Of a stretch of 64,000 bases of DNA, positions 15,796 to 64,000 are shown piece by piece. The DNA lies in NCBI GenBank assembly GCA_964291625.2, contig OZ220089.1, positions 4,160,001 to 4,224,000 of the forward strand, read 5' to 3'. This DNA is from Candidatus Latescibacterota bacterium (GTDB lineage Bacteria > Latescibacterota > UBA2968 > UBA8231). Positions within the stretch are counted from its first letter, which is position 1, and every line of letters starts with the position of its first letter. The translations under genes were made by a program, and so were the position numbers. The notes beneath the pieces are model-generated. The model had not been told where the DNA came from, ran no database searches, and saw only the letters and a program-made list of their open reading frames with translations.

Positions 15796-15808
15796 GGGAT
15801 GGCTGCAT

Positions 15809-26334: not shown

Positions 26335-26377
26335 GCCGCCATCGGGGGACCCGTCCGAGGCTCCCCGACCCGGAATC

Positions 26378-27202: not shown

Positions 27203-27218
27203 GAGTGCCTGACTCCTT

Positions 27219-28211: not shown

Positions 28212-28307
28212 TCGCCCTCCTTCGGGGTGTCGATGATGATTGCAGCCGTGCATTATACTCTCGCCCCCCAACCTGGACCATGATCACCGCCGATGGAGAG
28301 GACAGGC

Positions 28308-29609: not shown

Positions 29610-29611
29610 GA

Positions 29612-30757: not shown

Positions 30758-30758
30758 G

Positions 30759-31643: not shown

Positions 31644-31651
31644 CTGGCGGC

Positions 31652-32728: not shown

Positions 32729-32917
32729 TGGATCGGTCCCTCTTGTGGTTGGTGTGGGGTCTGCTCGCAGGGACGTATAGTTTTCCCGGCGGCGCGGTCA
32801 AGGAGGGATGGCTTCCGTCGTCCTTCGGGCCCGTCCTTGACGGGTATGGGAGAGGGCCCTTTCGTGCCCGGCCATCCACTCGCTGACCTGGCATCGCAGT
32901 CACTCCGGGAGACCACA

Positions 32918-33703: not shown

Positions 33704-33705
33704 GC

Positions 33706-39851: not shown

Positions 39852-39863
39852 AGGTCGAGAGCG

Positions 39864-40744: not shown

Positions 40745-41014
40745 GCTGAATCCCCGTGCTTGCCGCGGCGCACGCCCGCCGAGGGACACCGGCCTGGGGA
40801 CCGGTCTCGGTCGGGGCCCCTCGGGCGGCTCTCATCCGCGCCTCGCCGGCGCGGCACCCTTCCCTATACTAGACGGACCCGACGTGCCAGGGGAAGCCGG
40901 CTCCGGGTGGGCTGTCCCGACCACGGGCCCCGCGGCGCCCCACGCACTCCCGGTGGGACCACCGCTGCAGCCGCTCCCCCGGGTCCCGCCCCGTGATCGA
41001 GTGGGAGCCCGCGA

Positions 41015-42945: not shown

Positions 42946-43878
42946 ATGAAGAGAGTCTCATTCGCCCTCTGCCTGACCGTGGGCCTCGCCGTTTCGGCCC
43001 GGGCTCACGTGCCGGAGGGCCAGGTTCTGCTCGCCTTCCAGTTCCCGGCGGGCGCGGAGCCCACCCTGGACGGGGATCTGTCCGAGTGGGCCGTGGTTCC
43101 CTCGGACTACTGGATCGGGCCGGAGCTCTACACGGCCCCGGACGGATCGCAGTGGACGGACCTGTCCGACATGAACAGCAAGGTCATCGTCGGTTACAGC
43201 GCCAGCACCGACCGTCTCTACATCCACCACGAGTACTTCGACGACTTCCGCAAGCGGGACTTCGCCAATCTCCCGCCGGTGGCGGGCCTGTTCGGTGACG
43301 AACAGAACCTGCCCGACACCTTCGAGATCCAGGTCGACGGGGACCACGGCGGCGAAGACTCCTGGTTCGACCCGGCGGAACAGCCGGAGAACGGCTCGCG
43401 CTGGGCCCAGAATACCCACTTCCGCATCCCGGATCTGGATCCTTCTGTGGAGAACGTGAACGATGAGAAGACGGCATGGGCCTGGTACTGGCAGAGCCAG
43501 GCTACCTGGACCGGCAACCTGCCGTGGGCGACCAGTGGGTATTCGTCGGATGTCGTCGAGCTCAACGCCCCCGACGTCAACGGCCAGGCGGAGTGGATGT
43601 TCACGGCGTGGGACAACCTGCAGTGGGATGACCCGGACGCCAGCGTGGTGCACGACATGGTAGAAGGCCAGATCATCGGCATGAACTGGCAGATCTCCGA
43701 CTACGACAACCTGGAGGACAACTCGAAGGAAGACTGGCTCCTGAACGGCCAGGCCACCATCTGGCAGACCTCGTCGGTAGCCACCGACTTCCTCCTGGCT
43801 CCGGTGGAGGATGTCGAGTTCGGCACCGCCGTCGAAGCCAGGAGCTGGGGCCGCGTCAAGGCTGCCTTCACCGAGTAG
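42946..43878 (+). CDS. Secreted acidic CBM9/DOMON-like protein with C-terminal 'TAVEARSWGRVKAAF' tail
   Basis: RBS GGAGG, signal peptide MKRVSFALCLTVGLAVSARA, PTLDGDLSEW, DTFEIQVDGDHGG, GQIIGMNWQISDYD (CBM9-like hallmarks). Confidence 0.8.
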   Translation: MKRVSFALCLTVGLAVSARAHVPEGQVLLAFQFPAGAEPTLDGDLSEWAVVPSDYWIGPELYTAPDGSQWTDLSDMNSKVIVGYSASTDRLYIHHEYFDDFRKRDFANLPPVAGLFGDEQNLPDTFEIQVDGDHGGEDSWFDPAEQPENGSRWAQNTHFRIPDLDPSVENVNDEKTAWAWYWQSQATWTGNLPWATSGYSSDVVELNAPDVNGQAEWMFTAWDNLQWDDPDASVVHDMVEGQIIGMNWQISDYDNLEDNSKEDWLLNGQATIWQTSSVATDFLLAPVEDVEFGTAVEARSWGRVKAAFTE

Positions 43879-43884
43879 AGCAGG

Positions 43885-43909
43885 CGGCGGCGGGCCGATC
43901 TCGCCGCCG
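43885..43909 (+). terminator. GC-rich stem-loop after the SWGxVK gene (terminator or mRNA-stabilising hairpin)
   Basis: CGGCGGCGGG-CCGAT-CTCGCCGCCG forms a 10-bp stem with one G-U pair. There is no U-tract. Confidence 0.45.
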
Positions 43910-44024
43910 GCGATCAGGCTCATGGCACGAAGGAAGGGGGGATGTGGCTTCACATCCCCCCTTCACTGAATCAGCCCCACGGTGCAGGCCGGGTCTGTGC
44001 CGCACACGACAAGAGGGTGACATC

Positions 44025-45989
44025 TTGCCAGCAGGGCGATTGGCCAGCCTGCTCTTCTGCCAGTTGGCGGGCGCGGGGATGTGGGGCCCCGCGGAGGCGG
44101 TGACGATCTACCGGCTGGGCGGCGAGGACCACGCCAGCTTCCCCTTGCCTCCCGAGGTGGCGGACGGCCGCGCCGGGTTCGAGCAGTTGAGCTGGAGGGG
44201 CGTGGATCCCGCCCGGGCCGGCGTCTCCGACAACGTCAACCTGGATGGAGCCCTGGTCCCTTTCTACCACGGCAGCGACGAGAACATCCTGGCCGCGGCG
44301 GGAGAGCGTGGCGGCTTCCTGAGGACCGAGCGTTACACGGGCTATGGCCACGATCCGGACCTGGACGTGGTCGCCGATGGGGACTTCACCACCTTCGTCC
44401 TGAGGCATATTTCGTCGGTGGATTACAGTCCGGCTTCCGGCACCCACGGCTTGACCCTGTACTTCGATCTGGGCGGCCTGTTCCCGGTGAACCGGGTGCG
44501 CGTGTCGCCGCGCCCCGGCTCCACCCACTACATCGAGCACATCGCCATCGCCGCCGGCAGCGGCGAACCCCACGGGGGAACGCCGAACCGGTCCCACCTG
44601 GAATTCCACAGAAAGCTCGTCCGGGAAACGCCGTTTGACTTCGATCTGGTGGCGGAGATCACCCAGAACAAGAACCCGGTGGTGGAGATCCCCCTGGACC
44701 GGACGCCGGTGCGGCAGCTGGCGCTGTGGGTGGACCCGTTTCAGCGGGAGCCATGGGAGATTGCGGAGGTGGAGGTCTTCGCCGAGGGGTATGTGCCGTT
44801 CGCCGGCTATACCTCGAACACCATTCCCCTGGGCGCCCCCTCCAGCCTGGGGAGGGTGCGCTGGTCGGGCCGCCAGGACGAGTCGGCCCGGGTATCGATC
44901 CGCAGCCGCGGCGGCGACGATCCGGACCCGTCCCGGTACTGGCGGCGGACCTTCCGGTCCGACGAGGAGGTGCCGTACGGCGCGGACGGATCGACGCTGA
45001 CCCGGGACCAGTACGACAAGCTGGAGGGGAAGGAGAAGGGCCGCATCACCCACGACGCCGCAAACTGGGAGCTGTGGTCGGCGCCGTATCCCTTCGGCGA
45101 CAGTCTGGGGGTGGCGATGGTGGCGCCGAGGCCGCGCACCTACGTGCAGTTCTCGATCGACTTCGCCAGTGACTTCCTCGCCGGCGGGCAGGTCGATTAC
45201 CTGGAGTTCGCGGTATCGTCGCCGCCGGCGGCGACGGACCTGGTGGGGGAGGTCGATCCCTGGCGGGCCGAGGCCTCGGAGCCGACGGAGTTCACCTGCG
45301 CCGTGCGGCCGACCCTGTCGCTGCAGGACCGGGGATTCGACAGCCTGGAGCTGCGGTTCCAGGGCGGCCGGGTGGAGGAGGTGACCGGGGTCGAGGCGGC
45401 GGGAGCGGCCGTGGCCTTCACCGAGGTGGACAGCCTGCGCACCGACGACCGGGTGGTCGTGAGCTTCCCCCGGCTGGGAGTGAACGAGAGCGGCGAGCTG
45501 CTGCGGGTGAGGCTCCGGGGCGAGGCCTACCGCTACGCGGCGACCTTCCAGGTCCGGGTCTTCGACAGCGAGGCACCGGAGGAGGTCTGGCAACCGGTGA
45601 GGGCCGGCGACGCCACCGACGCCCTGGACGGCAACCGTCTGTCGGTGGAAGCCCTGGCCCTGGGGGCGTCGACGGTGGGGGGGCTGCAGGTCGAGCCGGC
45701 CGCCTTCACCCCCAACGGGGACGGGATCAACGACGAGGTGGCGATCCGCTACGACCTGCTGAAGCTGACCGAGGACCGGCGGGTGCGGGTGCGGGTGTGG
45801 GATCTGGCGGGCCGGCTGGTGCGGGACCTGTATGACGGGCGGGACCGTTCGGGGCGCTACGTCCAGCCCTGGGACGGCCGCGACGGCCGCGGCCGGCGGG
45901 TGCCGCCGGGACTCTATCTGTGCCGCGTCGCCGTCGACCGGGAAGGGGGCCGCGACGGCGAGACCCGCCTGATCGCGGTGGCGTACTGA
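44025..45989 (+). CDS. Secreted discoidin(F5/8C)-like + FlgD-Ig/CHU_C C-terminal domain protein (paralog 1); start uncertain
   Basis: VADGDFTTF...FDLGGLFPVNRVRVSPR, then FTPNGDGINDE...WDGRDGRGRRVPPGLY, ending IAVAY. Confidence 0.8.
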   Translation: MPAGRLASLLFCQLAGAGMWGPAEAVTIYRLGGEDHASFPLPPEVADGRAGFEQLSWRGVDPARAGVSDNVNLDGALVPFYHGSDENILAAAGERGGFLRTERYTGYGHDPDLDVVADGDFTTFVLRHISSVDYSPASGTHGLTLYFDLGGLFPVNRVRVSPRPGSTHYIEHIAIAAGSGEPHGGTPNRSHLEFHRKLVRETPFDFDLVAEITQNKNPVVEIPLDRTPVRQLALWVDPFQREPWEIAEVEVFAEGYVPFAGYTSNTIPLGAPSSLGRVRWSGRQDESARVSIRSRGGDDPDPSRYWRRTFRSDEEVPYGADGSTLTRDQYDKLEGKEKGRITHDAANWELWSAPYPFGDSLGVAMVAPRPRTYVQFSIDFASDFLAGGQVDYLEFAVSSPPAATDLVGEVDPWRAEASEPTEFTCAVRPTLSLQDRGFDSLELRFQGGRVEEVTGVEAAGAAVAFTEVDSLRTDDRVVVSFPRLGVNESGELLRVRLRGEAYRYAATFQVRVFDSEAPEEVWQPVRAGDATDALDGNRLSVEALALGASTVGGLQVEPAAFTPNGDGINDEVAIRYDLLKLTEDRRVRVRVWDLAGRLVRDLYDGRDRSGRYVQPWDGRDGRGRRVPPGLYLCRVAVDREGGRDGETRLIAVAY

Positions 45990-46000
45990 GGCGCGGCCAC

Positions 46001-48526
46001 ATGAACGGCAGGATCGGCGCGGCGCTGGTTGTCGGGGTCCTCTGGGGGAGTGCGGTCTGGGGCCAGGCGTACCTGCTCCGCGGCAACCAGATCGTGGTGG
46101 AGGGCCGCCACCTGAAGACCTGGGAGTACCCCGTGGGCACGATCGAGTTCCCGGCCCCGACGGCCGCCGCCCGGCCGCACTTCGTGGCCAAGGACATCGA
46201 CGCCACCCGCGACATCGTCGAGCACCTGCGGCGGCATCCGCCCCCGGGAGTCGAGGCCCAGGACCTCGACTTCCTGCACGCCGTGAGGGCCGGCACCAAT
46301 GCCGCCGGGGTAGCCAACCTCGTCGACGGGGATCCGGCCACGTACTGGCAGCCCGACCCGGACCAGCCGCTGCGCGACTGGTGGTTCGAGCTGGACCTGG
46401 GGCGGGTCGTCTCCGCGACCCGCATCCTCCTGACCTTCGTGGACGAGGATCTCGGGGATCCCTTTCTCCAGTATACCCTTCTGACCTCGGACGGCGAGCG
46501 TCCCGAGCAGGGCCTGCGGGACGTCAGGAGCTTCGTCGTCGCCTACGCGTCGCCGGGCGCCAACAAGAGCCGGCGCGTCTTCGAAATCGAGGTGAAACCT
46601 TCGGGAGACTCCCGGGATTCCGCGTGGCGGGGAGACGAGATCCGGTACGTGCAGCTCGTGGTGACGGAAAGCGACTCGGTCCGCGGCGCCGAGGTATCGG
46701 GCGCCGTCTACGACGCCCTGGAGCCGGCCCGCCGGGGGACGGTGGACTACTACAAGAAGGTGGCCGATGGGAGCATCCGGGTCGAGCGGGAGGTCTACGA
46801 GGCGATCGACCCCCGGTTGCGCGGCGAGGTCCGCTACTTCCGCCGCGAGCGTCCTCGTCTGGCCGGGATGGAAGTGCGGACGATCGGCGAGAACATCGCC
46901 CTGGGGTTGACGGCCCGCCGGGGGGTGGCGCTGAAGATCGAGACCGATACCACCGCGGTCACCGGCCTGGTGGACGGCCTGTATGAGACGACGGTCCTGA
47001 CCACGGTCCGCACCCCCGCCCTGCGCTTCTTCTACTTCGACCTCGGCGCCCACTACTGGGTGGATCGAGTGCAGATGTTCTTCCAGAACAAGGGCTTTCA
47101 GGGACCGATCACCGAGTACGAAGTCAGGACCTCGGACGGGAGCCGGACGCCCGACGGAAACCTGGCCTGGACCAGCCAGGCCCTCGGGGGCCGGGACGGC
47201 ATGGACTACCACGCCAAGGCCTTCGCGCCCACGGTCGCCCGCTACATCAGCATTCCCTACTCCGGCGGCATGGCGGGAGGCCAGGCGGACACGCGGGAGA
47301 TGCAGTTCTACGGTGAGGGATACCAGCCCCGGGTTTCGCTCACGTCCCCCCTGATCGCGCTGGACGGCGCCCGGACGCTGAGTTCGATCGAGTGGGAGGG
47401 CGAGACCCCTCCCGGGACCTCCATTGCCCTGCGCAGCCGGACCGGCAACCAGCTCGTCGATGTCCTCCGCTATCTCCAGCAGGACGGCAGCGAGATCACG
47501 GAGGAGCAGTACGACAAGCTGAACAAGTTCCAGAAGAAGGAAGTCGAGATCGTGACCGAGCAGGTGCCCGGGGGTGACTGGAGCGACTGGAGCGAGGAAT
47601 ACCGGGCCTCCGGGGCGCCCGTCACGTCGCCGAGCCCCCGGGAGTACCTCATGCTCCAGGCCTGGCTGACGACCGACCATCCGCACGAGGCCGCCTCCCT
47701 GCGGTCGATCCGGCTGAACTTCCTCGATCCCCTGGCCCGGCAGGCCCGGGGCGAGCTCGAGCCGGCCCTGGTGTCCGGGTTGGGCGCCGCCGACACCTTG
47801 TCCCTCTTCGTCAAGGCCGACTTCCTGCGCGACGGACCGGGAATGGACCAGATCCGCCTCTACGCTCCCGGCGTGGATCTGGACTTCCAGCTCCTCCGCA
47901 TGGGGCGGGAGTCCCAGTGGGAGGCCGGCCCGGCGGCCGAGCTGGGACCATCCGATCTGGAGCGGGTCCCGGCCGCCTCCGACTCGCTGTGGGTGCGCCT
48001 CGATTCGGCGGTGGGTCCCGAGGTCGACCTGATCGAAGTGCGGTTCACCGCGACCCTGTTCCGCCCCGGAGCCATCGTGCAGGCGGAACTGGGGAACTCC
48101 TCCGAGGCCGATCGATGGCAACGGGTGGACCCCGGCGACGCCACGGCCCTGGCCTCGAGTCAGGGGATGATGTTGCGGGGGTCCCTCGAAGCCGGGCGGG
48201 TGATTGGCCCGTTGAGGGTCAGCGCTCCGGTCCTGACCCCGAACGGGGACGGGATCAACGACGAGACCCGGTTCGAGTTCGCGGTGCTCCGCCTCGGCGG
48301 GCAGCGCGCGGTGAGGACCCGCCTCTACGATCTGGGCGGCGGCCTCGTGCGGGAGTGGGAGGAGCGGCGTCCCCTCGTGAGCGGGTCCTACGAGGTCCGC
48401 TGGTCCGGCGACGACCAGAGCGGCCGGCTGGTGCCTCCCGGGATCTATCTGCTGGAGATCGAGGTCGATGCGGACGCGGAGGTGTCGGGCCGCAAGGCGC
48501 ACCGCCTGGTCCATGTAGCGTATTGA
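46001..48526 (+). CDS. Secreted tandem discoidin-like + FlgD-Ig/CHU_C domain protein (paralog 2)
   Basis: Signal peptide, LVDGDPATYW...LDLGRVV and LVDG...FDLGAHYWVDRV, LTPNGDGINDE...WSGDDQSGRLVPPGIY, ending VHVAY. Confidence 0.82.
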   Translation: MNGRIGAALVVGVLWGSAVWGQAYLLRGNQIVVEGRHLKTWEYPVGTIEFPAPTAAARPHFVAKDIDATRDIVEHLRRHPPPGVEAQDLDFLHAVRAGTNAAGVANLVDGDPATYWQPDPDQPLRDWWFELDLGRVVSATRILLTFVDEDLGDPFLQYTLLTSDGERPEQGLRDVRSFVVAYASPGANKSRRVFEIEVKPSGDSRDSAWRGDEIRYVQLVVTESDSVRGAEVSGAVYDALEPARRGTVDYYKKVADGSIRVEREVYEAIDPRLRGEVRYFRRERPRLAGMEVRTIGENIALGLTARRGVALKIETDTTAVTGLVDGLYETTVLTTVRTPALRFFYFDLGAHYWVDRVQMFFQNKGFQGPITEYEVRTSDGSRTPDGNLAWTSQALGGRDGMDYHAKAFAPTVARYISIPYSGGMAGGQADTREMQFYGEGYQPRVSLTSPLIALDGARTLSSIEWEGETPPGTSIALRSRTGNQLVDVLRYLQQDGSEITEEQYDKLNKFQKKEVEIVTEQVPGGDWSDWSEEYRASGAPVTSPSPREYLMLQAWLTTDHPHEAASLRSIRLNFLDPLARQARGELEPALVSGLGAADTLSLFVKADFLRDGPGMDQIRLYAPGVDLDFQLLRMGRESQWEAGPAAELGPSDLERVPAASDSLWVRLDSAVGPEVDLIEVRFTATLFRPGAIVQAELGNSSEADRWQRVDPGDATALASSQGMMLRGSLEAGRVIGPLRVSAPVLTPNGDGINDETRFEFAVLRLGGQRAVRTRLYDLGGGLVREWEERRPLVSGSYEVRWSGDDQSGRLVPPGIYLLEIEVDADAEVSGRKAHRLVHVAY

Positions 48527-48540
48527 GCTGTCGAGCGGGA

Positions 48541-50715
48541 ATGCAGCGGATCAGCCTCGGCCTGGCCATGGCCGCCACACTGTGCCTGGTGGCCCGCGAT
48601 CTGGCTGCCGAGAGCCGGACCCTGGGCGGCGCCGGCGATCGACCCTGGAACGGCGGCGGCGGAGAGATCCCGGCCGCGGTGCAGACCAGCGTCGACGGGG
48701 CCGCGGTCACCAACACTCCGGGCGATGTGGTGGACTTCGACTTTCCCGGCCGACCGGGCTGGATCTTCCCCGAGAGGGCCGACTCCACGAGGAATATCGC
48801 CGCCGAGGCCGCCCTGACCTCGCCGAACATCCTGACCGAGGGCATCGCCGAGGAACTGCTCCTGATGGTGGACGGCGATCTCGAGACCGCTTTCACCCAG
48901 AAGGGCGAACCAGGGGGGCCGCAGGTCCTCGCCTTCGGGGCCATGTTCGACGTCGACCTGGGGGCGCGCTTCGGGGTGAACCGGGTCCAGTTCTTTCCGA
49001 GGAACGCTCCGGGATTCGAGGCCCCCGGCTTTCCTTTCCAGAACGATTATCTGCGCGCCTACGAGCTCCTCGTCAACGACGGCAGCGAGAACTCCAGGGA
49101 CGAGTCCGGCAGGCCGGTGCTGACCACCTTCAAGCTGGAGCTGCAGAACGACCGGCCCGTGGTCGACCTGCGGATTCCCCCCCAGTACCTGCGCTTCCTG
49201 CGGCTGAAGTCGCAGACGGTCGTCGGCTTCGAGATCGCCGAGTTTCGGGTATTCGGGGCGGGGTTCGTGCCAGAGGCCCGGTACATCTCCAGTGTATTCG
49301 ACCTGGGGACCCGCTGGGGGGTGTGGGGCAAGATCCGGTGGATCGAGGAGACCCTGGGTCCCGAAGGGCTGGCCCGGGCCCGCATCACGACCCGGGCGGG
49401 GCATGACGATACGCCCCTGGAGTTCACCCGCCCCGGTCCGGATTCGGAGGACATCCCCTGGCAGCGGGGAGCGGTGGCCACCACGGCCGAGGGGGAGGAG
49501 ATCGCCCTGGACGATCTCGAGCCCCTCGAAGCCCTGCGGGCCTACCGCGCCCTGCCCCTGGCGGAGAAGAACCGGGTGGCCCTGAGCCTGGAGGAGTATC
49601 TCGGCCTGAAGCCACGGGGCCGGATCCGCGACGATCCGGACGCCTGGACCCCGTGGTCGGCTCCGTATGGGCCGGAAGGCAGCCGCGGCATCACGACGGA
49701 GAATATCGATGACGAGCGCCTCGGGGCGGTCGTCACCACTCCGGGCCCACGGCGCTACTTCCAGGTCCGGGTGGAACTGTTGAGCCGGGACCTGGAGGCA
49801 GCCACCGGCATCGGGCAGCTGGCCTTCACGGTGCACCCCCCGGCGGCGGAGCGGATCGTCGGAGAGATCTACCCGCGCCAGGCCGGGCTGGCCGTGGCCG
49901 AGACGTTCACCTACGCGGCCATGCCCACCCGCATACGGCCGGGCCGGGACAGCGGCTTCGACACCTTCGAGATCGCCACGCCGGTCCGCGTCGAGGCGAT
50001 CGAGACGGTGCAGGTCCGCTTCCACGACGGCCGCACCGAGGCGGCGGATTTCTCGGGTCGGGATCTGGGCCCGTCGGCGTTGCCCACCGATCCGGCCGCC
50101 GACTTCGGCATCGAGCTGGTGGAGGAACGGCGGTTCCGGGTCCGCTTCCCGGCCATCACGAGGAGCGACCTCGAGGCCGGCGAGACCGCCGTCCTGACGA
50201 TCCGGTTCCGCTGCCGCGTCCTCCGCTACGGGACGACCTTTCCCGGGTGGGCCGGCCGCACCGGCAGCGGCAGCGCCGGCCAGAAGATCCTCGCCGGCAA
50301 CGCCGCCCACCTCGGTCCCGGGGACCCCGCCTTTCCTCCCCTGGGCACGGCGGACCCGCGGGTCCTGTCGGTGGACGTTCCCCTCGCGGGCGGCGGCGTC
50401 CTGATCAACGCCCGGGTGTGGCCGCGGCCCTTCAGCCCCAACGGCGACGGGGTCAACGACGGGACCCGCGTCTCCTACGACCTGTCCCGCGTCATCGGTC
50501 CCGTGGCCGTGGAGGTGAGGATCCTCGACGTGGCGGGGCGCGTCGTTCGCCGCCTCTTCACCGGCGAGCAGGAGGGCGGGCACTGGTCGATGCCCTGGGA
50601 TGGGACCGACGGCGGCGGTTCCCCGGTGCCGCCCGGGATCTACCTGGCCCACGTGGCGGTGAACAGCGCGGCCAGCGTCGAGACGGCGGCTGCCGTCGTC
50701 GAAGTGGCATACTGA
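48541..50715 (+). CDS. Secreted discoidin-like + FlgD-Ig/CHU_C domain protein (paralog 3)
   Basis: Signal peptide MQRISLGLAMAATLCLVA, MVDGDLETAF...DLGARFGVNRVQFFPR, FSPNGDGVND...WDGTDGGGSPVPPGIY, ending VEVAY. Confidence 0.82.
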   Translation: MQRISLGLAMAATLCLVARDLAAESRTLGGAGDRPWNGGGGEIPAAVQTSVDGAAVTNTPGDVVDFDFPGRPGWIFPERADSTRNIAAEAALTSPNILTEGIAEELLLMVDGDLETAFTQKGEPGGPQVLAFGAMFDVDLGARFGVNRVQFFPRNAPGFEAPGFPFQNDYLRAYELLVNDGSENSRDESGRPVLTTFKLELQNDRPVVDLRIPPQYLRFLRLKSQTVVGFEIAEFRVFGAGFVPEARYISSVFDLGTRWGVWGKIRWIEETLGPEGLARARITTRAGHDDTPLEFTRPGPDSEDIPWQRGAVATTAEGEEIALDDLEPLEALRAYRALPLAEKNRVALSLEEYLGLKPRGRIRDDPDAWTPWSAPYGPEGSRGITTENIDDERLGAVVTTPGPRRYFQVRVELLSRDLEAATGIGQLAFTVHPPAAERIVGEIYPRQAGLAVAETFTYAAMPTRIRPGRDSGFDTFEIATPVRVEAIETVQVRFHDGRTEAADFSGRDLGPSALPTDPAADFGIELVEERRFRVRFPAITRSDLEAGETAVLTIRFRCRVLRYGTTFPGWAGRTGSGSAGQKILAGNAAHLGPGDPAFPPLGTADPRVLSVDVPLAGGGVLINARVWPRPFSPNGDGVNDGTRVSYDLSRVIGPVAVEVRILDVAGRVVRRLFTGEQEGGHWSMPWDGTDGGGSPVPPGIYLAHVAVNSAASVETAAAVVEVAY

Positions 50716-50728
50716 GAGGAGGTCGACG

Positions 50729-56405: not shown

Positions 56406-58081
56406 TGGGACCAGCCGGAGCGGTGCTGATCCTGGCCGCGGGGGCGGTCCTGGCCGGTTGCGGGGAAGACCCCCGCGGGCCGGTGCTGGCCGAGGTGGGG
56501 GACTCCCGCATCCACGCGTCCGACCTGCGCCGCTACGAAGAGCGCCTGGCCGAGAGCCTGAGGTCCCGGGAGGCGGGCATCGAAGGCCGGCGGCAGCATC
56601 TGCAGGCCCTGATCGACAAGGAGATCCTCATTCGGGAGGCGGCGGCGCGGGGATGGGACCGGGACCGCGACATGCGCCGCAGGCTGGAGCGCGAATGGAC
56701 CCGGCGGCTGGTGCAGGAGTTCCTGGCCCGGGAGGTGGATGCCAGGATCACCCTCGAGGAGCAGGAGGTCCGGGACCAGTACCTCAAGAGCGGACGAGAC
56801 CGCGCGGTCCGGTGCGGCCGGATCGATGTCGGGACCAGGGAAGAGGCCGAGGAGATCGTGCGCCTCCTCGAGGGCGGCGCCGACTTCGGGGAGTTGGCGA
56901 GGCAGCGCTCGACCCACCGTCCGACGGCGGCGCAGGGGGGCCTCTACACCGGCTACGTCACCCGGGACCAGATCCCCCTGGCCATCATGCGGGAGCAGGT
57001 CTATCCCCTCGAGAAGGGGGAGATCTCCGAGCCGCTGCCCCTCCCGGGCGGCTCCTACGGCGTGTTCCAGGTCGTGGAGGAGGTGACGGTTCCCCTCGAA
57101 CGGGTGCGGCGCCTGGTGGAAGCCGAACTCCACCGGGAGAAGGCCCGCGTCCGGTCCATGGAGCTGGGCCGGGAACTGCGGGATGCCCTGGACGCGCGTC
57201 CCCGGGAAGACGGTTTCGAGCTTCTCGCCGCGCGTCTGGAGAGCGGGGCCAGCTCGCTCTCCGAGGCGGAGCGCGGCGCGGTCCTCTACGAGTTCGACGG
57301 CGGCGCCGTCACCGTGGGGGAGCTCGTCGACTCGGCCCGCGAGAACTACCGGCGGTTTTCCGGCGACGCGCGGGAGCAGGTGCGGTGGTTCGCGGAGTCC
57401 GTCCTGGTTCCTCGGGCGCTGATCGTGCAGGCCGCCCGCAATGCCGGCATCGACCGCGAGCCGGGGATGGCCGCCTGGCGCCGGGCCAGGGAGCACGAGC
57501 GCCTGCTGACGGTCATCCGGAGAGAGGTGACCGACGACGTCTCCGTGGCCGAGGCCGAGGCCCGGCGCTTCCATCGCGAGAATCCGCGGCTCTTCGTCCC
57601 CCAGGAGGATCTGACGCTGGACGAGATCCTGGTGGCGACACGGGAAGAGGCGGTTGCGGTCCGCCGCCGGATCGAGGCCGGTGAGGACCTGCGGCTCCTG
57701 GCCCTGGAGCACACCCTGCGGCACCAGGCCATTCCGGACAGCGGGAGATTCCACCTCCATGAGTACGAGAGAGAGGCCCACGAGGCCCTCTTCGAAGCCG
57801 CTCGGGGAGCCGCGCCGGGCGACCTGGTGGGTCCCGTCGAAGTGGAACTGCCGGCGTCAGGAGACCGCTTCCATTCGGTGTTCCGGGTCGTCGAGTCGAC
57901 CCTCGGCGCCGGCCCCCGGCCCTTCGCCGAGGTCGAGACCCGCGCCCGGGCGATGGTCCTGCGCCGCAAGCGCGATGCGGCCTTCTACCGGTTTCTGGGG
58001 GAGTTGCGGAAACGGTACGAGTCCCAGGTCAGGATCCACGAAGAGAGCCTGAAAGCGCTGGTACGACAGGAGGGCAGCTGA
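56402..58081 (+). CDS. Parvulin-type peptidyl-prolyl cis-trans isomerase lipoprotein (PrsA/SurA-like, two rotamase domains)
   Basis: Lipobox LAGC, VLAEVG, GADFGELARQRS...GGL...GEISEP, and a second domain EILVAT...GEDLRLLALEHT...GDLVGPV. Confidence 0.88.
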   Translation: MMGPAGAVLILAAGAVLAGCGEDPRGPVLAEVGDSRIHASDLRRYEERLAESLRSREAGIEGRRQHLQALIDKEILIREAAARGWDRDRDMRRRLEREWTRRLVQEFLAREVDARITLEEQEVRDQYLKSGRDRAVRCGRIDVGTREEAEEIVRLLEGGADFGELARQRSTHRPTAAQGGLYTGYVTRDQIPLAIMREQVYPLEKGEISEPLPLPGGSYGVFQVVEEVTVPLERVRRLVEAELHREKARVRSMELGRELRDALDARPREDGFELLAARLESGASSLSEAERGAVLYEFDGGAVTVGELVDSARENYRRFSGDAREQVRWFAESVLVPRALIVQAARNAGIDREPGMAAWRRAREHERLLTVIRREVTDDVSVAEAEARRFHRENPRLFVPQEDLTLDEILVATREEAVAVRRRIEAGEDLRLLALEHTLRHQAIPDSGRFHLHEYEREAHEALFEAARGAAPGDLVGPVEVELPASGDRFHSVFRVVESTLGAGPRPFAEVETRARAMVLRRKRDAAFYRFLGELRKRYESQVRIHEESLKALVRQEGS

Positions 58082-58104
58082 AGCGCCGTGCGGCCCGGGG
58101 GCTG

Positions 58105-61100
58105 ATGCGGCGGCTGGTCGTCTGGCTGACGCTGCCGGTGCTGTGCGCCGCCGCCCGGGCGGACGCGGACGGCATCCGCGCCACCGTGGAGTTCATGGCC
58201 TCCGTCGGCTCCCGGGTCAGTGGCTACCCGGGCAGCGACCTGGCCGCCGACTACGTGGCCGACGCCTTCGCCGCCGCCGGCGTCCGCGAGGTCGCCGTCG
58301 AGGAGTACCCGATCACCGTGCCCCTCGACCGCGGCGGCGAGCTCACCCTCACCGCCTCGGGCGAGCGCTTCCGCCTCCACGGCCTGTGGCCCAACCACGT
58401 GCGGACCCCCACGGTGCCGGATTCCGGGCTCTCCGGTCACCTGATCTACGGCGGGGAAGGGCGCCTGTCCGAGTACGCGGGCCTCGAGCTCGCCGGCAGC
58501 ATCGTCCTCCTCGAGTTCAACACGGGCAACCGCTGGCTGGAGGCCGCCTCCCTCGGGGCCCGCGCCATCCTGTTCATCGAGCCGCAGGCCACCTCCGGGC
58601 GCGAGGCGGGGGCCAAGTTCGTCTCCGTCCCCCTCGACATACCGAGGCTCTGGATCGACGCCGCCGCCGGCGCCCGCCTGAGGGACCTGGCGGAGGACGG
58701 ACCCCTCGAGGCGCGCCTGGGGAGCCGCATGGACTGGGTCTCGCGGAAGGGCCGCAACATCTGGGGCGTGGTCCCCGGTCACCACCCCGAGCTCGGGGGG
58801 GAGACGATCGTCGTCCAAGCCTACTACGACGGCATCTCCATCGTCCCGGCCCTGGCGCCCTCGGCCGAGACCGCCGGCGGCGTCGCCGCCCTGCTGGAGC
58901 TGGCCCGGCATCTCCAACGCCGCCCGCCGGCGCGGACCGTCGTCCTGGTGGCGACCGGGGCCCACTTCCTCGCCCGGCGGGGGATCGTCGACTTCCTCGA
59001 CCGCCATGCCCGCACCCACGAGGAGTACGCCGGGCTCATGGAGAAGCCCCTCGATCCGGCCCTCTTCATCGGCCTGGACCTGACCAGCGGCAGCGATCGC
59101 ATCGGCATCTGGAACAACACCGACCGCTACGACATCAAGCGGTTCTACGTCCCCTTCGGCCGCGCCTTCACCGCCTACGCCGAGGCGGCGGCGCCCCTCC
59201 TGGGGCGCAGGGCGGAGCGCGCCCTGGTCAACGGCATCAGTCCCCTCAAGGGCCTCGACTGGTCGACCTACGTGCCCGGGGGGGTCACCGTGGACGGCCA
59301 GGTGGCCATGGCCGCGGGGCTCGTGGCCCTCTCCTTCGTCACCATCGGCGACGGCCGCTTCGTCGTCGACACGCCCCTGGACCGGCCGCAGCGGGTCGAC
59401 TTCGACAACCTGTCCCGGCAGAGCGCCTTCCTCAACCAGATCCTGAGCCGGGCCTTCGACGATCCCCGGCTGCTGGCCGACCTGGAGGACTTCGGCCCGG
59501 TCCTGAAGGACGAGCTGCGCACCTTCCGCGTCGACGTGCGCGCCTTCCCGCGCCGCAGCCAGGTGCCCGACCGGATCGTCGAGGGGGCCATCGTCGCCCT
59601 GGGCGCGGGCGCCGCGCGGCGGGCCGGGCCGGGCTTCAAGCCCCACAAGGGAGTGCGCGCCTTCCGCTTCCACCTGGCCGACGGCAACGGCAGCGCCGTG
59701 ATCCCCGGGCTGCCCCTCGGGGCCGTGCCGGTGAGCGCCTACGTCCTCGACCCCGAGACCGGCGATGTCGTCTACGCCCCCGACAGCGGCGAGCGCGCCG
59801 GCAGGCACCACGGCAAGAAGCTGGCCCAGGCGATCCGCTTCGCCGGCGAGCACAAGACCCTCGTCGTCTTCCCCTGCGCGTCCCGGCCCTTCTACGGCCT
59901 CGTCGACCCCCGATCCCTCACGGCCGTCCGGCAGATCCGGGTCGTGAACCACACGGGCGTGGCGCCCAAGGAATACGGCGTGGCCAGGGGCGAAGGCGTC
60001 CGGGAGCCGGTGGCGGTGGCCTTCGCCGCGGCCGACGACAGCCTCATGTACCTCATGTCGGACAGCATGATTCTCACCAACAGCCGCACCGACCCGCGCG
60101 GCACCGGGTACGTGGTCGGCCGGGACCCTCTCGAGCGCACCGACTACCTGGCGGTGCAGGACATGTGGCGGATCAACGACGAGCGCCTGGCGGCGATGCG
60201 CGACCACGCCATCGAGAATCCGCGGCTGGCGGCGCTGCACGCCTGGGGACGCGAGCTGATCGACCAGGCCGGGGCCGCGGCCGAGAGGCGGGACTGGGAC
60301 GCCTTCATGTCCAGGGTGCGGGCCGCCCGGGGCGTCACCTCGCGGGCCTACCCGGACGTGATGGCCACTCTGAACGACGTCATCAAGGGGCTCGTGTTCT
60401 TCCTCGCCCTGGTGCTGCCGGCCGCCTTCTTCGGCGAGCGTCTGGTCTTCGCCGCCGCCGACATCCGCTGGCAGCTGTCCGGCTTCGCCCTGATCATGGC
60501 GATCGTCTGGGCGGCCATCTCCCAGGTCCATCCGGCCTTCGACATCGCCCATCCGGCGATCATCCTCCTCGCCTTCGCCATCATGGCCATGGCCGTCTTC
60601 GTCTTCGCCATGATCTTCTCGCGCTTCAACCACTACGTGGAGGAGTTCCATGCCCGCGCCTCCCAGGTGCACCGGGCCGACATCAACCGCGTCAGCGCCT
60701 CCTACGCCGCCTTCATGCTCGGCATCTCCAACATGCGGCGCCGCAAGCTGCGCACGACTCTGACCCTGGTGACGTTGACCCTGCTCACCTTCACCGTCCT
60801 CTCCTTCACCTCCTTCCGGCAGCAGCTCGCCTTCCTCGCCTTCCCCACCGCCCACGAGGCCCGTCACGAGGGGGTCCTGATCCGCCACCCCGGCTGGAAG
60901 GAGCTGTCGTCTCCGACCCTCGACTACGTGCGCTCCCACTTCTCCCGCCATGGCGTCGTGAGCCCGCGCAACTGGCTGGTGGCCGACGCGGGCAAGCCGA
61001 AGAGCTACATCGAGGTCCAGGGGAAGGCGGGCACGGTGCGCGCCGCCGGCCTGCTGGGACTGTCGCCGCAGGAGCCCCGGGTCACCGGCATCGACGAGGC

Positions 61101-62499
61101 CCTGGCGGCGGGCCGTTTCTTCGAGAGGGACGACGAGAGCACGTGCCTCCTTCCCGGGAGAATGGCCGCGGCCCTCGGCATCGGCGCGGCGGACGTGGGC
61201 CGGGCCGCCGTTCGCGTCTTCGGCCGGGACCTCGTGGTCCGCGGCATCGTCGACGCCGGCCGGCTGGACGCCATCCGCGATCTCGACGCCGAACCGCTCA
61301 CGCCGGCCGACTTCCAGAGCGGCGAGGTGCAGTTGCCCGGAGGCCGGGAGAGGGTCTCCATGGAGATCGAGGAAGAAGCGGGTCCGGACCGGATCGAGCC
61401 CTTCCTCCACATGGCGGCCGACAACGTCCTGATCCTGCCCTACGGCGCCGTGTGGGTGGCCGGCGGCACCCTGCGCTCCGTCGGCGTCCGCTTCGACGAC
61501 GGCGTCGACGGCCGTCCCCTGCTGGAGGGCTTCCTGACGCGCGTGGCCGCAACCCTCTTCGCCAGCCTCCGCGACCCCGGGACGGGCGAGCTCGAGGTCT
61601 CCTCCTACACCTCCGTGGGCCTGACGGCGGTGGAAGGACTCGCGGCGCTGTTCGTGCCCATCGTCATCGCCGCCCTCATCGTCCTCAACACCATGCTGGG
61701 CGCCGTGTACGAGCGTCTCCGGGAGATCGGCGTCTACTCCTCCGTGGGGCTGGCGCCGATGCACATCGCCCTGCTCTTCGTGGCCGAGGCCTGTGTCTAC
61801 GCCGTCCTCGGCGTCACCCTCGGCTACCTCCTGGGCCAGGGGTCGGCCAGGCTGCTGCTGACCCTCGACCTCGTGCACGCCATGGACCTGAACTACTCCT
61901 CCACGGCGGCGGTCTCGGCGGCCCTCATGGTCATGGTCCTGGTGCTGCTGTCCACCCTCTACCCGGCGCGAGTCGCCGCCGCCAGGGCGGTGCCGGACAC
62001 GGTGCGGCGCTGGGTGCCGCCCGACCCGGAGGGCGACCGCTGGGAGTTCGACTTCCCCTTTGCCGTGGGGACGGGCGAGGTCCGGGGACTGAGCGGGTTC
62101 CTGGCCGGCTGGTTCGGGTCCTGCAACGAGGACTCCGTCGGCGACTTCTACGCCGAGAAGGTGCGCCTCGTCACCGGCGGGGAGGCCGGGGCCCCCGCGT
62201 ACTCCCTGCAGATGCTGACCTGGCTGGCCCCCTTCGACAAGGGGGTGAGCCAGTACCTGCAGCTCGACTTCGCGCCCTCCCCGGTGGCCACCATCTACCA
62301 GGTGGAGGTCTTCATCGAGCGGATCAGCGGCGAGACGACGTCGTGGCGGCGGCTCAACCAGGGCTTCATGAACAGCCTGCGGAAGCAGTTCCTGCTGTGG
62401 CACACCTTCACGGAGGAGGCCAGGGCCCACCACCGGCAGGCCGCCGAAGGGATGCTGGCGGAGAGCGCTGCCCAGGCCGGCGGGGCCGACCTCGCATGA
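58105..62499 (+). CDS. Fusion of PA + M28 peptidase-fold ectodomain with a multi-TM MacB/FtsX-like permease (1464 aa)
   Basis: GSRVSGYPGSDLAADYV, PA domain, NIWGVVPG...ETIVVQAYYD, TM block, GISNMRRRKLRT, and FtsX motif VYERLREIGVYSSVGLAP. Confidence 0.85.
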   Translation: MRRLVVWLTLPVLCAAARADADGIRATVEFMASVGSRVSGYPGSDLAADYVADAFAAAGVREVAVEEYPITVPLDRGGELTLTASGERFRLHGLWPNHVRTPTVPDSGLSGHLIYGGEGRLSEYAGLELAGSIVLLEFNTGNRWLEAASLGARAILFIEPQATSGREAGAKFVSVPLDIPRLWIDAAAGARLRDLAEDGPLEARLGSRMDWVSRKGRNIWGVVPGHHPELGGETIVVQAYYDGISIVPALAPSAETAGGVAALLELARHLQRRPPARTVVLVATGAHFLARRGIVDFLDRHARTHEEYAGLMEKPLDPALFIGLDLTSGSDRIGIWNNTDRYDIKRFYVPFGRAFTAYAEAAAPLLGRRAERALVNGISPLKGLDWSTYVPGGVTVDGQVAMAAGLVALSFVTIGDGRFVVDTPLDRPQRVDFDNLSRQSAFLNQILSRAFDDPRLLADLEDFGPVLKDELRTFRVDVRAFPRRSQVPDRIVEGAIVALGAGAARRAGPGFKPHKGVRAFRFHLADGNGSAVIPGLPLGAVPVSAYVLDPETGDVVYAPDSGERAGRHHGKKLAQAIRFAGEHKTLVVFPCASRPFYGLVDPRSLTAVRQIRVVNHTGVAPKEYGVARGEGVREPVAVAFAAADDSLMYLMSDSMILTNSRTDPRGTGYVVGRDPLERTDYLAVQDMWRINDERLAAMRDHAIENPRLAALHAWGRELIDQAGAAAERRDWDAFMSRVRAARGVTSRAYPDVMATLNDVIKGLVFFLALVLPAAFFGERLVFAAADIRWQLSGFALIMAIVWAAISQVHPAFDIAHPAIILLAFAIMAMAVFVFAMIFSRFNHYVEEFHARASQVHRADINRVSASYAAFMLGISNMRRRKLRTTLTLVTLTLLTFTVLSFTSFRQQLAFLAFPTAHEARHEGVLIRHPGWKELSSPTLDYVRSHFSRHGVVSPRNWLVADAGKPKSYIEVQGKAGTVRAAGLLGLSPQEPRVTGIDEALAAGRFFERDDESTCLLPGRMAAALGIGAADVGRAAVRVFGRDLVVRGIVDAGRLDAIRDLDAEPLTPADFQSGEVQLPGGRERVSMEIEEEAGPDRIEPFLHMAADNVLILPYGAVWVAGGTLRSVGVRFDDGVDGRPLLEGFLTRVAATLFASLRDPGTGELEVSSYTSVGLTAVEGLAALFVPIVIAALIVLNTMLGAVYERLREIGVYSSVGLAPMHIALLFVAEACVYAVLGVTLGYLLGQGSARLLLTLDLVHAMDLNYSSTAAVSAALMVMVLVLLSTLYPARVAAARAVPDTVRRWVPPDPEGDRWEFDFPFAVGTGEVRGLSGFLAGWFGSCNEDSVGDFYAEKVRLVTGGEAGAPAYSLQMLTWLAPFDKGVSQYLQLDFAPSPVATIYQVEVFIERISGETTSWRRLNQGFMNSLRKQFLLWHTFTEEARAHHRQAAEGMLAESAAQAGGADLA

Positions 62500-64000
62500 G
62501 CAAGGCCGTCCCCCGGATCTACCGCCGGCACCTGAGCTCGCGCTCCGAGCCCCTCCTCGAGTCGCGCCACCGCCTGACGTGGCGGGGGTTCTTCGTGGGC
62601 AGCTTCCTGAGCTTCTTCCTGGCCATCGGCGCCCCCTACAGCAACATGGTCATCAAGGGCGCCTACGTGTCCGCCGACATCAGCACCCCGGGGGCGATCT
62701 TCGTCTTCGTCGTGCTCATCGGCCTCCTCAACCTCGCCTTCAAGGCAGCGGCCCGCAGCAAGGGGTCGGCCCTCGCCTTCGCCGCCGCCCTGGGGGCCGC
62801 CTGGCTCTCCGCCTACCGGCCCCTGGGCGATGTCGATGTGCATTCGCCCGGATTCATCTTCTCCACCTTCGCCCTGACCTGCGCCCTCGCCAACGTGCCG
62901 CTGGCCTGGTCCGGCCGCAGCCTGGCCCTCAACCGGGCCGAGCTGATCATGGTCTATGCCATGCTGGCCATGGTCTCGGCCGTGTGCACCATGGGCCTGA
63001 CCGAGATCCTCCTGCCCACCCTCACCGCCGTCTTCTACTACGCCTCGCCGGAGAACCAGTGGCGGGAGAAGCTCTTCCCCCACTTCCCCGAGCACGACAT
63101 CCTCGTGGACGACGGCGCCGGCAACGCCCTGTTCTTCGAGGGCATCTCCAGCTCCGGCGAGGGCATCCCCTACGGCGCCTGGGTCGAGCCGCTCACGTGG
63201 TGGGCGGTCTTCCTGCTGGCCCTCTACGTGTGCATGATCTCGATCGCCGTGATCCTGCGGCGCCAGTGGATGGAGCGGGAGCGGCTGAGCTATCCGGTCG
63301 CCCAGGCCGGTCTGGCCATGATCCGCGGCGAGGACGAGAAAGGCCTGGTGAACGGCTTCTTCAAGCGTCCCTCCGTGTGGATGGGCATGGCCATCCCCTT
63401 CATCGCCGGCAGCCTCCGGGCGATGTCGAACTACGACCCCTCCGTACCCATGGTGTGGATGCGCCTGCCCATACCCTACGCCTCCGGCAAGGTCGACTTC
63501 GCCCTCACCGGCTTCGCCTACCTCATCGACACGAGGATATCGGGGAGCCTGTGGGTGTTCTACCTGCTCGGCAGGATGCAGAAGAGCCTGCTGGCCACCG
63601 CCGGGATCAAGTCGGAGCAGGTCCTCGAGGGCGTCCACGACGCCCCCCTGGTCGGCTACGAGGGGCTGGGGGCCCTGCTGGTGCTGGTGGCGGTGGTGCT
63701 GTGGACGGCCCGCGACCACCTGAAGGCGGTCTGGCTCAAGGCCCTGGGCCGGGCGCCCCTCGTCGACGACCGGGACGAGATCCTCTCCTACCGCGGCGCC
63801 GTGATCGGCGCCCTCGGGGGGATCGCGGTCATGACCGGGTGGCTGTGGATCATGGGCACACCCCTGTGGGTCTCGTTCTTCTTCATCGTCCTGGCCATGG
63901 CGATCTTCATCGGCATCACCCGGATCATCGCCGAGGCCGGGCTGGCGACCCTGCGGACGCCCGTCAACGCCCCCGACTTCGTCATCCTGGGTCTCGGGTC
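62496..64000 (+). CDS. DUF6785-family (OPT-like) polytopic membrane transporter, 3'-truncated by the window edge; absent from the ORF track
   Basis: ATG at 62496 overlaps the previous stop (ATGA). The frame appears open to the window end, with LTWRGFFVG, LNRAELIMVYAM, FYYASPENQW, ILRRQWMERERLSYPVAQ and TRIIAEAG. Confidence 0.8.
   Translation, partial: MSKAVPRIYRRHLSSRSEPLLESRHRLTWRGFFVGSFLSFFLAIGAPYSNMVIKGAYVSADISTPGAIFVFVVLIGLLNLAFKAAARSKGSALAFAAALGAAWLSAYRPLGDVDVHSPGFIFSTFALTCALANVPLAWSGRSLALNRAELIMVYAMLAMVSAVCTMGLTEILLPTLTAVFYYASPENQWREKLFPHFPEHDILVDDGAGNALFFEGISSSGEGIPYGAWVEPLTWWAVFLLALYVCMISIAVILRRQWMERERLSYPVAQAGLAMIRGEDEKGLVNGFFKRPSVWMGMAIPFIAGSLRAMSNYDPSVPMVWMRLPIPYASGKVDFALTGFAYLIDTRISGSLWVFYLLGRMQKSLLATAGIKSEQVLEGVHDAPLVGYEGLGALLVLVAVVLWTARDHLKAVWLKALGRAPLVDDRDEILSYRGAVIGALGGIAVMTGWLWIMGTPLWVSFFFIVLAMAIFIGITRIIAEAGLATLRTPVNAPDFVILGLG

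Follow-up and report, generated by a model that had tools for sequence, protein, structure and literature searches.

Paired predicted outer-membrane barrels and tyrosine-tailed proteins in a conserved, multi-copy gene module of Latescibacterota-type bacteria

We analysed a run of nine co-oriented genes, here named g1 to g9, in a 64,000-nt stretch of contig OZ220089.1 (assembly GCA_964291625.2, positions 4,160,001 to 4,224,000 of the forward strand) from a Candidatus Latescibacterota bacterium. The whole stretch is referred to as the window, and coordinates without a locus label are counted from its first letter. A first-pass annotation, made from the sequence alone, had proposed that the nine genes encode one envelope-spanning machine. 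Since the window has about 70% G+C and open frames are therefore abundant on both strands, genes were called from a third-position G+C (GC3) frame plot in combination with a scan for candidate start codons. By these two measures the following nine genes were found between 42946 and the end of the window at 64000:

42946-43878, plus strand: g1, 310 aa, secreted-type protein with a CBM9-like lead
44025-45989, plus strand: g2, 654 aa, surface-type protein with a terminal Tyr (Tyr-tail protein); its TTG start is uncertain
46001-48526, plus strand: g3, 841 aa, Tyr-tail protein with a discoidin domain
48541-50715, plus strand: g4, 724 aa, Tyr-tail protein
50729-53527, plus strand: g5 (barrel A), 932 aa, predicted large outer-membrane beta-barrel
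53527-56405, plus strand: g6 (barrel B), paralog of g5, lying here in two frames (53527-55926 and 55890-56405)
56402-58081, plus strand: g7, lipoprotein-type protein with two parvulin peptidyl-prolyl isomerase (PPIase) domains
58105-62499, plus strand: g8, 1464 aa, with M28/PA-like and FtsX/MacB-type permease domains
62496-64000, plus strand: g9, DUF6785 polytopic membrane protein, truncated by the window end

The tight packing described in the first-pass annotation was confirmed by the GC3 and start-codon scan. From 44025 onward the gaps do not exceed 23 bp, being 11, 14 and 13 bp between g2 and g5 and 23 bp between g7 and g8, and stop and start codons overlap at 53527 (TGATG), 56402 (ATGA) and 62496 (ATGA). 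Spacing is wider upstream, with 146 bp between g1 and g2 and 392 bp between the preceding TPR gene and g1. Barrel B, previously taken as intact, proved to be broken: its span of 2879 nt (53527 to 56405) is not a multiple of 3, the coding phase shifts near 55880, the first frame terminates at 55926, and the frame that closes at 56405 has no start after 53643. DNA alignment placed the break in a run of seven G at 55884-55890, which is one base longer in three related loci (L001, L041 and L039; the labels are explained below), and the counterpart in L001 is a single intact open reading frame (ORF) of 967 aa. A deletion of 1 bp in a G-run thus frameshifts g6 in this assembly. A second phase break occurs near 39960-40020, in an unrelated minus-strand gene without a family (39864-40789). 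Because of this second break and the intact g6 of the relatives, assembly indel errors are the simplest reading, while a real pseudogene or recent decay may be the alternative. In the minus-strand gene, the N-terminal part lies in the frame of ORF 39542-40789 and a plausible C-terminus in the frame of 39864-40835. Programmed frameshifting in g6 was also considered and was rejected, as the relatives keep the frame and differ in the length of the G-run alone.

Conservation of the gene set was followed by scanning species-representative genomes with the barrel, by which at least 678 stretches were matched and at least 620 were confirmed as barrel genes. The best 80 were retained with 10-kb flanks and labelled L001 to L080; they come from 41 assemblies, and 61 of them have full flanks (hereafter, full loci). 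Window proteins were mapped onto the 80 loci by tblastn and every locus was condensed to a string of families. The gene set was found again in all 80 loci. Two barrels were present in 79 (61 of 61 full loci), the sole locus without both being L055, a 5-kb contig, and at least one Tyr-tail gene was present in all 80 (61 of 61 full loci), with three or more in 64 (54 of 61). A g1-like gene was found in 57 loci (52 of the full ones) and a g7-like PPIase gene in 65 (53 of the full ones). In comparison, a g9-like DUF6785 gene occurred in 29 loci (25 full), a TPR gene like the one upstream of g1 in 23 (21 full), and g8 in only 2 (both full). More than one locus per genome was common: 27 of the 41 assemblies supplied 2-4 of the best 80 loci each, the maximum being four.

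The membership of the set was unchanged through at least seven gene orders. When T stands for TPR, 1 for g1-like, V for Tyr-tail, B for barrel, P for PPIase and D for DUF6785, with lower case for the opposite strand, these include T-1-V-V-V-B-B-P(-D), 1-V-V-V-B-B-P-1, 1-V-V-V-B-B-d-d, V-B-P-B-V-V(-1) and p-V-B-B-1-V-V, besides others. Constant membership through shuffled orders is what one expects when parts act together, and one shared ancestral arrangement cannot alone explain the linkage, because paralogous loci in single genomes already differ in order. Identity to the window proteins was highest for the barrels (48-62%) and lowest for g1 and the PPIase (25-43%). The families are therefore not scattered but linked across 80 loci of 41 genomes, and we conclude that g1-g7 is a conserved, multi-copy outer-membrane module of Latescibacterota-type bacteria. 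As g8 is present in 2 and g9 in 25 of the 61 full loci, the inner-membrane genes are only loosely linked to this core, and g8-g9 is a second, separable inner-membrane module beside it. Of the nine-gene machine proposed earlier, then, the g1-g7 part is strongly conserved and the inclusion of g8 and g9 is not. The metagenome-assembled genomes (MAGs) that contain the related loci are labelled variously as Latescibacterota, Gemmatimonadota/-aceae, Bryobacterales and 'Gemmatimonas phototrophica'. This mixture probably reflects inconsistent labelling and is not evidence for a wide range of the module.

The two barrels g5 and g6 are 40% identical across 763 residues. Neither g5 nor the intact g6 of L001 had a Pfam match even at E<=5 or any NCBIfam match. 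A sequence search with g5 returned 916 relatives at E<=1e-3, all named ones being 'hypothetical protein', with source labels of Latescibacteria/-ota and Gemmatimonadetes/-aceae MAGs and one of Gammaproteobacteria; a barrel profile run against a 50%-identity protein library found 952 representatives, and for 338 of these E was 1e-30 or lower. g5 was modelled by AlphaFold2 on a 37-sequence alignment; the model had a mean predicted local distance difference test (pLDDT) score of 70.4 and showed, between about residues 140 and 931, long antiparallel strands that are interrupted by an inserted small sheet and by a stretch of low confidence (534-632). Foldseek matched the model to 65 PDB chains at E<=1e-3, and the listed ones were all outer-membrane barrels with template modelling (TM) scores of at most 0.25, including LptD, SlpA, MtrB, ushers, porins and TonB-dependent receptors. 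By its model, g5 is predicted to have the fold class of a large outer-membrane barrel that matches no modelled family, in agreement with the twin barrels of the first-pass annotation. The most conserved stretch of the family, as judged from 37 sequences, carries invariant D-x-N-x-D/N acidic loops at g5 residues 537-626 (about 52337-52606 in the window); we take these loops to be calcium-loop-like, and they look like a putative calcium-binding site. AlphaFold2 left this stretch of invariant Asp/Asn loops unstructured. The C-termini of the barrels read ...TFITVYAG followed by one or two residues.

These features bear on the idea of a structural complex in the envelope, in which the module would be a lattice or tether anchored in the outer membrane, like the SlpA-type S-layer carriers, with no specificity for transport or display. 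SlpA/SDBC barrels were ranks 2, 3 and 5 among the g5 fold matches, at TM scores of only 0.18-0.24, an S-layer protein was among the matches of the g4 model described below, and the invariant calcium-loop-like motifs would also fit such a role. However, the fold matches are generic barrel matches, and several diverged copies per genome with differing transporters and enzymes would be unexpected for a single layer, so that we consider a lattice very improbable.

The relationship between the two barrels was examined in a tree of 157 sequences, taken from the 78 loci in which both barrels are single ORFs of at least 750 aa, with the addition of g5 of the window. The set excludes L055, the broken g6 of the window and one locus whose second barrel is split; alignment columns in which gaps exceeded 50% were trimmed, and the tree was inferred by FastTree with LG+gamma. 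All 78 second-position barrels formed one clade with a support of 1.0, and all 79 first-position barrels fell outside it. This clean split indicates that the A/B duplication is older than the multiplication of the loci and that one of each was kept per locus. A and B are thus an ancient, always retained pair, which is the signature of a heteromeric pair. In L070 (14506-17441) the second barrel was matched in two pieces (14506-15648 and 15651-17441), which may be a frame break in the public assembly.

The proteins g2, g3 and g4 end in the same VAY (...IAVAY, ...VHVAY and ...VEVAY, respectively) and are full-length paralogs with identities of 29% (E 5e-49) and 25% (E 6e-24); for g2 and g4 the identity is 29% over 677 columns. 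Both the tails and the paralogy had been noticed in the first-pass annotation, and its discoidin and FlgD labels held in part. F5_F8_type_C (F5/8 type C, discoidin) was matched in g3 with 41.4 bits against a Pfam cut-off of 28.2, and FlgD_ig in g4 with 42.3 bits against 27, the only one of the three to pass that threshold. g2 fell just short for FlgD_ig and CHU_C (26 bits each, cut-off 27), and g3 was under both cut-offs, its C-terminal domain matching the FlgD chain 3osv_A at E 0.003; the CHU_C scores of the three proteins were 26, 17.7 and 20.2 bits. In NCBIfam they had only sub-threshold matches, to FlgD, the C-termini of PorU and PorZ, and the type-B C-terminal domain (CTD). AlphaFold2 modelled g4 (pLDDT 69.3) as a row of beta-sandwich domains, of which the C-terminal one (620-724) is well predicted, and the PDB matches of this model were generic multi-Ig surface proteins at TM scores of at most 0.16, with one S-layer protein among them. 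In g2-g4, discoidin-type domains occupy the front part and the C-terminal domain is Ig-like, its last residue being Tyr.

A terminal Tyr was found in all 204 distinct g2/g3/g4-type proteins whose C-terminus lies inside the locus. Their tails were VAY in 113, LAY in 26, VVY in 21, LVY in 18 and MVY in 13, with few others, and follow the general form [LVMI][AVTSGL]Y. When a profile of the last 88 residues was run against all ORFs of the loci and the window, 224 domain hits were obtained, of which 210 were C-terminal and ended in Tyr, 11 were internal second hits in Tyr-ending proteins, and 2 ran off the end of the locus. The remaining hit was a DUF3179 protein (L054:3682-5223, minus strand) with a related FlgD_ig-type domain, after which 15 more residues follow, ending in ...LLW. 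This case suggests that such C-terminal domains are used beyond the module, whereas the terminal Tyr is restricted to it. A C-terminal aromatic residue is a hallmark of the beta-signal of outer-membrane proteins, and because the terminal Tyr resembles it, docking of the tails on the barrels can be envisaged. A complex prediction for barrel A (residues 40-932) and the C-terminal domain of g4 (620-724), made without controls, gave scores of 0.14 and 0.13 against a mark of 0.32, which speak neither for nor against such docking.

One explanation for the tails is that the module is a display or secretion system, in which the A/B barrels are the translocon and/or anchor for their own Tyr-tail proteins and the product is an adhesive or protective coat, with no import. 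Analogues would be the PorP/SprF-type barrels that serve type-B CTD proteins in the type IX secretion system (T9SS), and TpsB, which serves TpsA. Each locus encodes its own barrels and its own Tyr-tail proteins, with a g4-type gene directly upstream of barrel A in every case, and the invariant free Tyr would suit strand-to-strand docking on a barrel. The weak CHU_C, PorU-CTD and PorZ-CTD similarities of the C-terminal domains and the resemblance of the g4 model to multi-Ig adhesins and S-layer proteins point the same way, and a dedicated periplasmic chaperone would suit an export route. On the other hand, the barrels are about three times the size of PorP/SprF, match neither that family nor any other, and carry no POTRA or two-partner secretion signature, and the frequent transporter and catabolic neighbours described below would be left unexplained. 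We regard display or secretion as somewhat unlikely.

The C-terminal domains also raise the possibility that the Tyr-tail proteins are ordinary cargo of a T9SS encoded elsewhere, with the barrels being co-regulated porins or structural proteins and not partners of the tails. Type-B cargo with PorP/SprF is similar to the module in having an Ig-like CTD (here with weak CHU_C similarity) and barrel genes beside the cargo, and in belonging to the Fibrobacteres-Chlorobi-Bacteroidetes (FCB) group. The FlgD_ig/CHU_C similarity would agree with this, and so would the related domain on the unrelated DUF3179 protein, which implies wider use in these genomes. However, the models for type-A and type-B CTDs were missed (in g2, TIGR04131 with 18.4 bits against 35; no match to TIGR04183), CHU_C stayed under its cut-off, and the generic FlgD_ig passed in g4 only. 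Neither the window nor the flanks that were scanned contained a T9SS core gene. The module barrels, unlike those of the type-B pairs, are of about 930-970 aa, paired, and of no known family, and the occurrence of two same-family barrels with the tails in 79 of 80 loci would remain without explanation. The PPI of the T9SS translocon, named in the title of 8gl8, is presumably of cyclophilin type, whereas the module has a parvulin. The DUF3179 protein ends in Trp after a longer tail, and we know of no description of an invariant terminal Tyr for T9SS cargo. According to parts of one article (PMC11285876), T9SS may occur in other FCB phyla, and the C-terminus of Porphyromonas gingivalis T9SS cargo can be extended without loss of function, so that a strict last-residue rule is not described in those parts as a T9SS need. 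We therefore rate ordinary T9SS cargo as distinctly improbable; like the lattice, it explains less of what was observed.

The remaining two products of the core are g1 and g7. g1 has an N-terminal signal-like segment on reading its sequence and no match in Pfam (E<=5), NCBIfam or a PDB sequence search. The CBM9-like character first assigned to it has a counterpart in the Atlas features, where g1 scored 0.97 to clusters with CBM9_1 in 13-37% of members and 0.93 to a cluster with CBM9_1 in 100%; without a Pfam match it is a lead only. For g7 the earlier PPIase assignment was borne out, as two stretches passed the Pfam cut-offs (Rotamase, 44.3 bits against 21.7; Rotamase_2, 44.8 against 27). NCBIfam PPIase models covered residues 122-262 and 370-480, all under their equivalog cut-offs, including those of SurA and PrsA. 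A signal-like segment is followed by LAGC at residues 17-20, which reads as a lipobox, and g7 is a predicted SurA/PrsA-like double-parvulin PPIase and putative lipoprotein.

In the inner-membrane unit, g8 had been described as a pseudo-M28/FtsX fusion, of which the FtsX part is well supported (43.7 bits against a Pfam cut-off of 25.5) and the M28 part is sub-threshold (18.1 against 21.3). A PDB sequence search matched residues 1120-1298 to YtrF, MacB and LolC and residues 17-276 to the aminopeptidase 2ek8, and NCBIfam gave sub-threshold MacB/LolC matches. In 117 of 121 relatives, Tyr occupies the position aligned to the histidine of the 2ek8 H-x-D motif. At what we take to be the position of the M28 Glu-Glu motif, g8 has Ala-His, the His being present in 120 of 121 relatives. 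Since D242, E255 and H287 are nearly invariant, 'divergent' is a safer word than 'dead' for this domain, which may be an M28-like domain with a non-canonical site. g8 nonetheless represents a genuine and conserved family: it had 269 relatives at E<=1e-3, the named ones being FtsX-like permease, ABC transporter permease and M28 family peptidase. Eight of 120 listed relatives, of 2,088-2,143 aa, carry DUF6784, FtsX and DUF6785; in BLASTP these fused proteins consist of a g8-like part with 48-54% identity followed by a g9-like part with 33-37%, which ties g8 to g9. Among the 80 loci g8 occurs in L001 and L041 only. L002-L007 and L039, loci of 80-86% identity, lack it; in these, g9 follows g7 directly after about 110-190 bp.

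g9 is a DUF6785 protein as stated before (E 3e-92, 310 bits), and its full-length relative in L002, of 713 aa, matches DUF6785 with 374.5 bits and DUF6784 with 87.1 bits. When DUF6785/DUF6784 clusters were excluded, the nearest Atlas clusters were peptide/OPT-type transporters at 0.76-0.78, a weak lead; a PDB sequence search with g9 gave no match below E 1, and we found no open-access paper on DUF6785. No ATPase gene lies beside g8-g9 within the window DNA, which ends inside g9, and the sole ABC_tran gene of the window (13842-14507) belongs to a separate MacAB-like cluster. An ATP-binding cassette (ABC) ATPase gene after g9 was looked for in L002-L007 and L039, where the genes after g9 are unrelated, among them those for EF-P, GcvH, an HNH protein, an FAD oxidoreductase and a GH108 lysozyme; these are the loci that lack g8, whereas the g8-bearing L001 and L041 break off within g9, where their 10-kb flanks end. 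g8 is like the MacB/LolC/FtsX type VII ABC permeases in that its FtsX four-helix domain is C-terminal and has a periplasmic domain in front of it. It differs from them in having no ATPase gene seen beside it, an M28/PA-like N-terminal domain without the canonical histidine, an extra membrane segment, a C-terminal tail of about 160 aa, and, in some genomes, a fusion to DUF6785/DUF6784.

Comparison of the whole module with known outer-membrane systems gave resemblances of arrangement. As in SusC/SusD loci, many diverged copies occur per genome, a barrel is encoded with surface ligand-binding-type proteins, and transporters, regulators and catabolic genes adjoin. Unlike these, however, the module has two paralogous barrels, where Sus has one barrel and a lid lipoprotein, its surface proteins carry a C-terminal Ig-like domain with Tyr and not an N-terminal lipid anchor, and in its scanned flanks a GH108 lysozyme is the only glycoside hydrolase or lyase. 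No Plug or TonB_dep_Rec match was obtained for g5 or the intact g6 of L001 (Pfam at E<=5; NCBIfam), and no SusD/RagB match among the module proteins, the upstream window genes or the 151 flank ORFs described below. Neither Pfam nor NCBIfam gave a match of the barrels to PorP_SprF, POTRA/Bac_surface_Ag, Usher or LptD, the LptD and usher fold matches having TM scores of at most 0.22. In DUF5916 proteins of the FCB group, a CBM9-like domain at the N-terminus is joined to a large barrel. They share the combination of CBM9-like domain and large barrel with the module, in which the CBM9-like protein is a separate gene, and the barrels had no DUF5916 match in Pfam at E<=5. With no curated Pfam or NCBIfam cut-off reached for a characterised Sus, TonB-dependent or T9SS-core family, neither scattered families nor a high-confidence match to T9SS or Sus was found, the two outcomes that the first-pass annotation had named as speaking against it. 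We found no description of the module in the literature (open-access main text), including searches for Latescibacter with FlgD or type IX secretion. Judging from these sequence comparisons, we would rate it as a new kind of outer-membrane system that resembles Sus and T9SS type-B systems in logic and not in parts.

Upstream of g1, the window contains three genes that recur near the module or may be accessory to it:

36286-37941, plus strand: FG-GAP/ASPIC-UnbV protein (Pfam), a recurrent neighbour of the module
37965-39851, plus strand: protein without a family, 628 aa, without signal peptide, possible accessory gene
41015-42553, plus strand: g0, TPR protein, 512 aa, Pfam TPR matches with E down to 3e-63

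In 21 of 61 full loci the g1-like gene is directly preceded by a g0-like one, and in other loci the gene in this place carries a PMT_2 domain in addition to TPR. The 37965-39851 protein has no Pfam or NCBIfam match; it is 49% identical to the product of an L028 gene directly after the PPIase, has relatives in 16 of 80 loci, and may be an unrecognised cytoplasmic pathway enzyme. For the wider neighbourhood, flank ORFs unmatched by window proteins were sent to Pfam in two batches, 68 from 21 loci and 83 of 171 candidates from 31 loci, the second being hand-picked to avoid near-identical loci (151 ORFs from 52 loci in total). Enolase-superfamily dehydratases were found in 10 of the 52 scanned loci, FG-GAP/ASPIC-UnbV proteins in 9 (L010, L026, L061, L062, L065, L067, L072, L073 and L077), family-5 solute-binding proteins in 7, PMT_2+TPR membrane proteins in 7, sulfatases in 4, AraC regulators in 3 and FGE-sulfatase in 2, and aldolases, dehydrogenases and amidohydrolases were recurrent. 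The FG-GAP/ASPIC-UnbV neighbours often stand beside pentapeptide-repeat proteins of about 510-550 aa. One TonB-dependent barrel was found near L061.

Within the window, 25042-35938 is a dense catabolic cluster with three PhyH-type dioxygenases, GFO/IDH/MocA, amidohydrolase_2, an enolase-superfamily dehydratase, an RraA-like aldolase, Ldh_2, SDR and an aldehyde dehydrogenase, and looks like a sugar-acid-type pathway. The MacAB-like cluster on the minus strand (5815-15795) has five consecutive FtsX/MacB_PCD permease genes, the ABC ATPase gene mentioned above and an HlyD-type adaptor, and beside it are a sigma-54 two-component pair (3126-5818) and a DUF5686/CarboxypepD_reg protein (583-3126). Unrelated insertions in the flanks of the related loci comprise restriction-modification genes, transposases and GmrSD. 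In L063, L068, L069, L073 and similar loci, the second barrel and the Tyr-tail gene that follows it are 1-3 kb apart, and in L068, L069 and L073 a GmrSD-type restriction gene lies in this gap. Upstream of barrel A in L071, a DDE transposase gene is present in two identical copies (1281-2369, minus strand, and 6045-7133, plus strand) that flank Tyr-tail genes.

From this evidence we tentatively favour the reading that the module is a surface ligand-capture and uptake complex, to which we give somewhat less than an even chance. We prefer it because the copies are many and diverged, because domains of carbohydrate-binding type are present, and because transporters and catabolic genes lie nearby. 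The Tyr-tail proteins and g1 would be located on the cell surface and bind ligand, most likely glycan, and would be held at, or delivered through, the A/B pair by way of the C-terminal domain and its free C-terminal Tyr. The parvulin lipoprotein g7 would chaperone the large beta-rich proteins in the periplasm, the A/B pair would be the outer-membrane conduit for captured material, and neighbouring transporters (DUF6785/DUF6784 and family-5 binding-protein ABC systems) would carry the material over the inner membrane. The copies in a genome might each have their own ligand, in parallel to the polysaccharide-utilisation loci of Bacteroidota but with unrelated parts and no TonB signature.

Several points weigh against uptake. 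The tie between the parts is so far one of gene linkage, and the CBM9 label of g1 is a lead from the feature space of a protein language model only. A plug-less barrel of this size would be unusual as an open nutrient channel, and as the g5 model has low confidence at residues 1-139 and 534-632, it allows no inference on plug or pore. Of the 61 full loci, 36 have no DUF6785 gene. The counts of flanking genes are not independent, since the ORFs come from related genomes, and they cover 83 of the 171 candidates of the second batch. Finally, the 151 flank ORFs included no polysaccharide-degrading glycoside hydrolase or lyase, the GH108 lysozyme (in L004, on the other strand) being the only such find. 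This lack of degradative enzymes also speaks for display or secretion and, with no sign of barrel gating, places that explanation close behind uptake.

The uptake reading can also be put in a more specific form, in which an obligate heteromeric pair of giant plug-less barrels would recruit ligand-binding proteins through Tyr docking in the manner of a beta-signal, an anchoring independent of both lipidation and T9SS. Capture and import would then be TonB-independent, parallel to SusCD and separately evolved, and apparently found, among the relatives seen, in Latescibacterota- or Gemmatimonadota-labelled MAGs only. We consider this combination as a whole unlikely.

To our knowledge, Latescibacterota and their relatives are widespread and uncultured. 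Parts of one genomic study (PMC4454575) assume non-specific porins for these bacteria. The module offers a new barrel family, a strict C-terminal Tyr rule, and a fusion-supported pairing of an FtsX-type protein with DUF6785/DUF6784 without a visible ATPase. As a multi-copy module on an unmodelled barrel family, it could be the main interface of these bacteria with their substrates or hosts.

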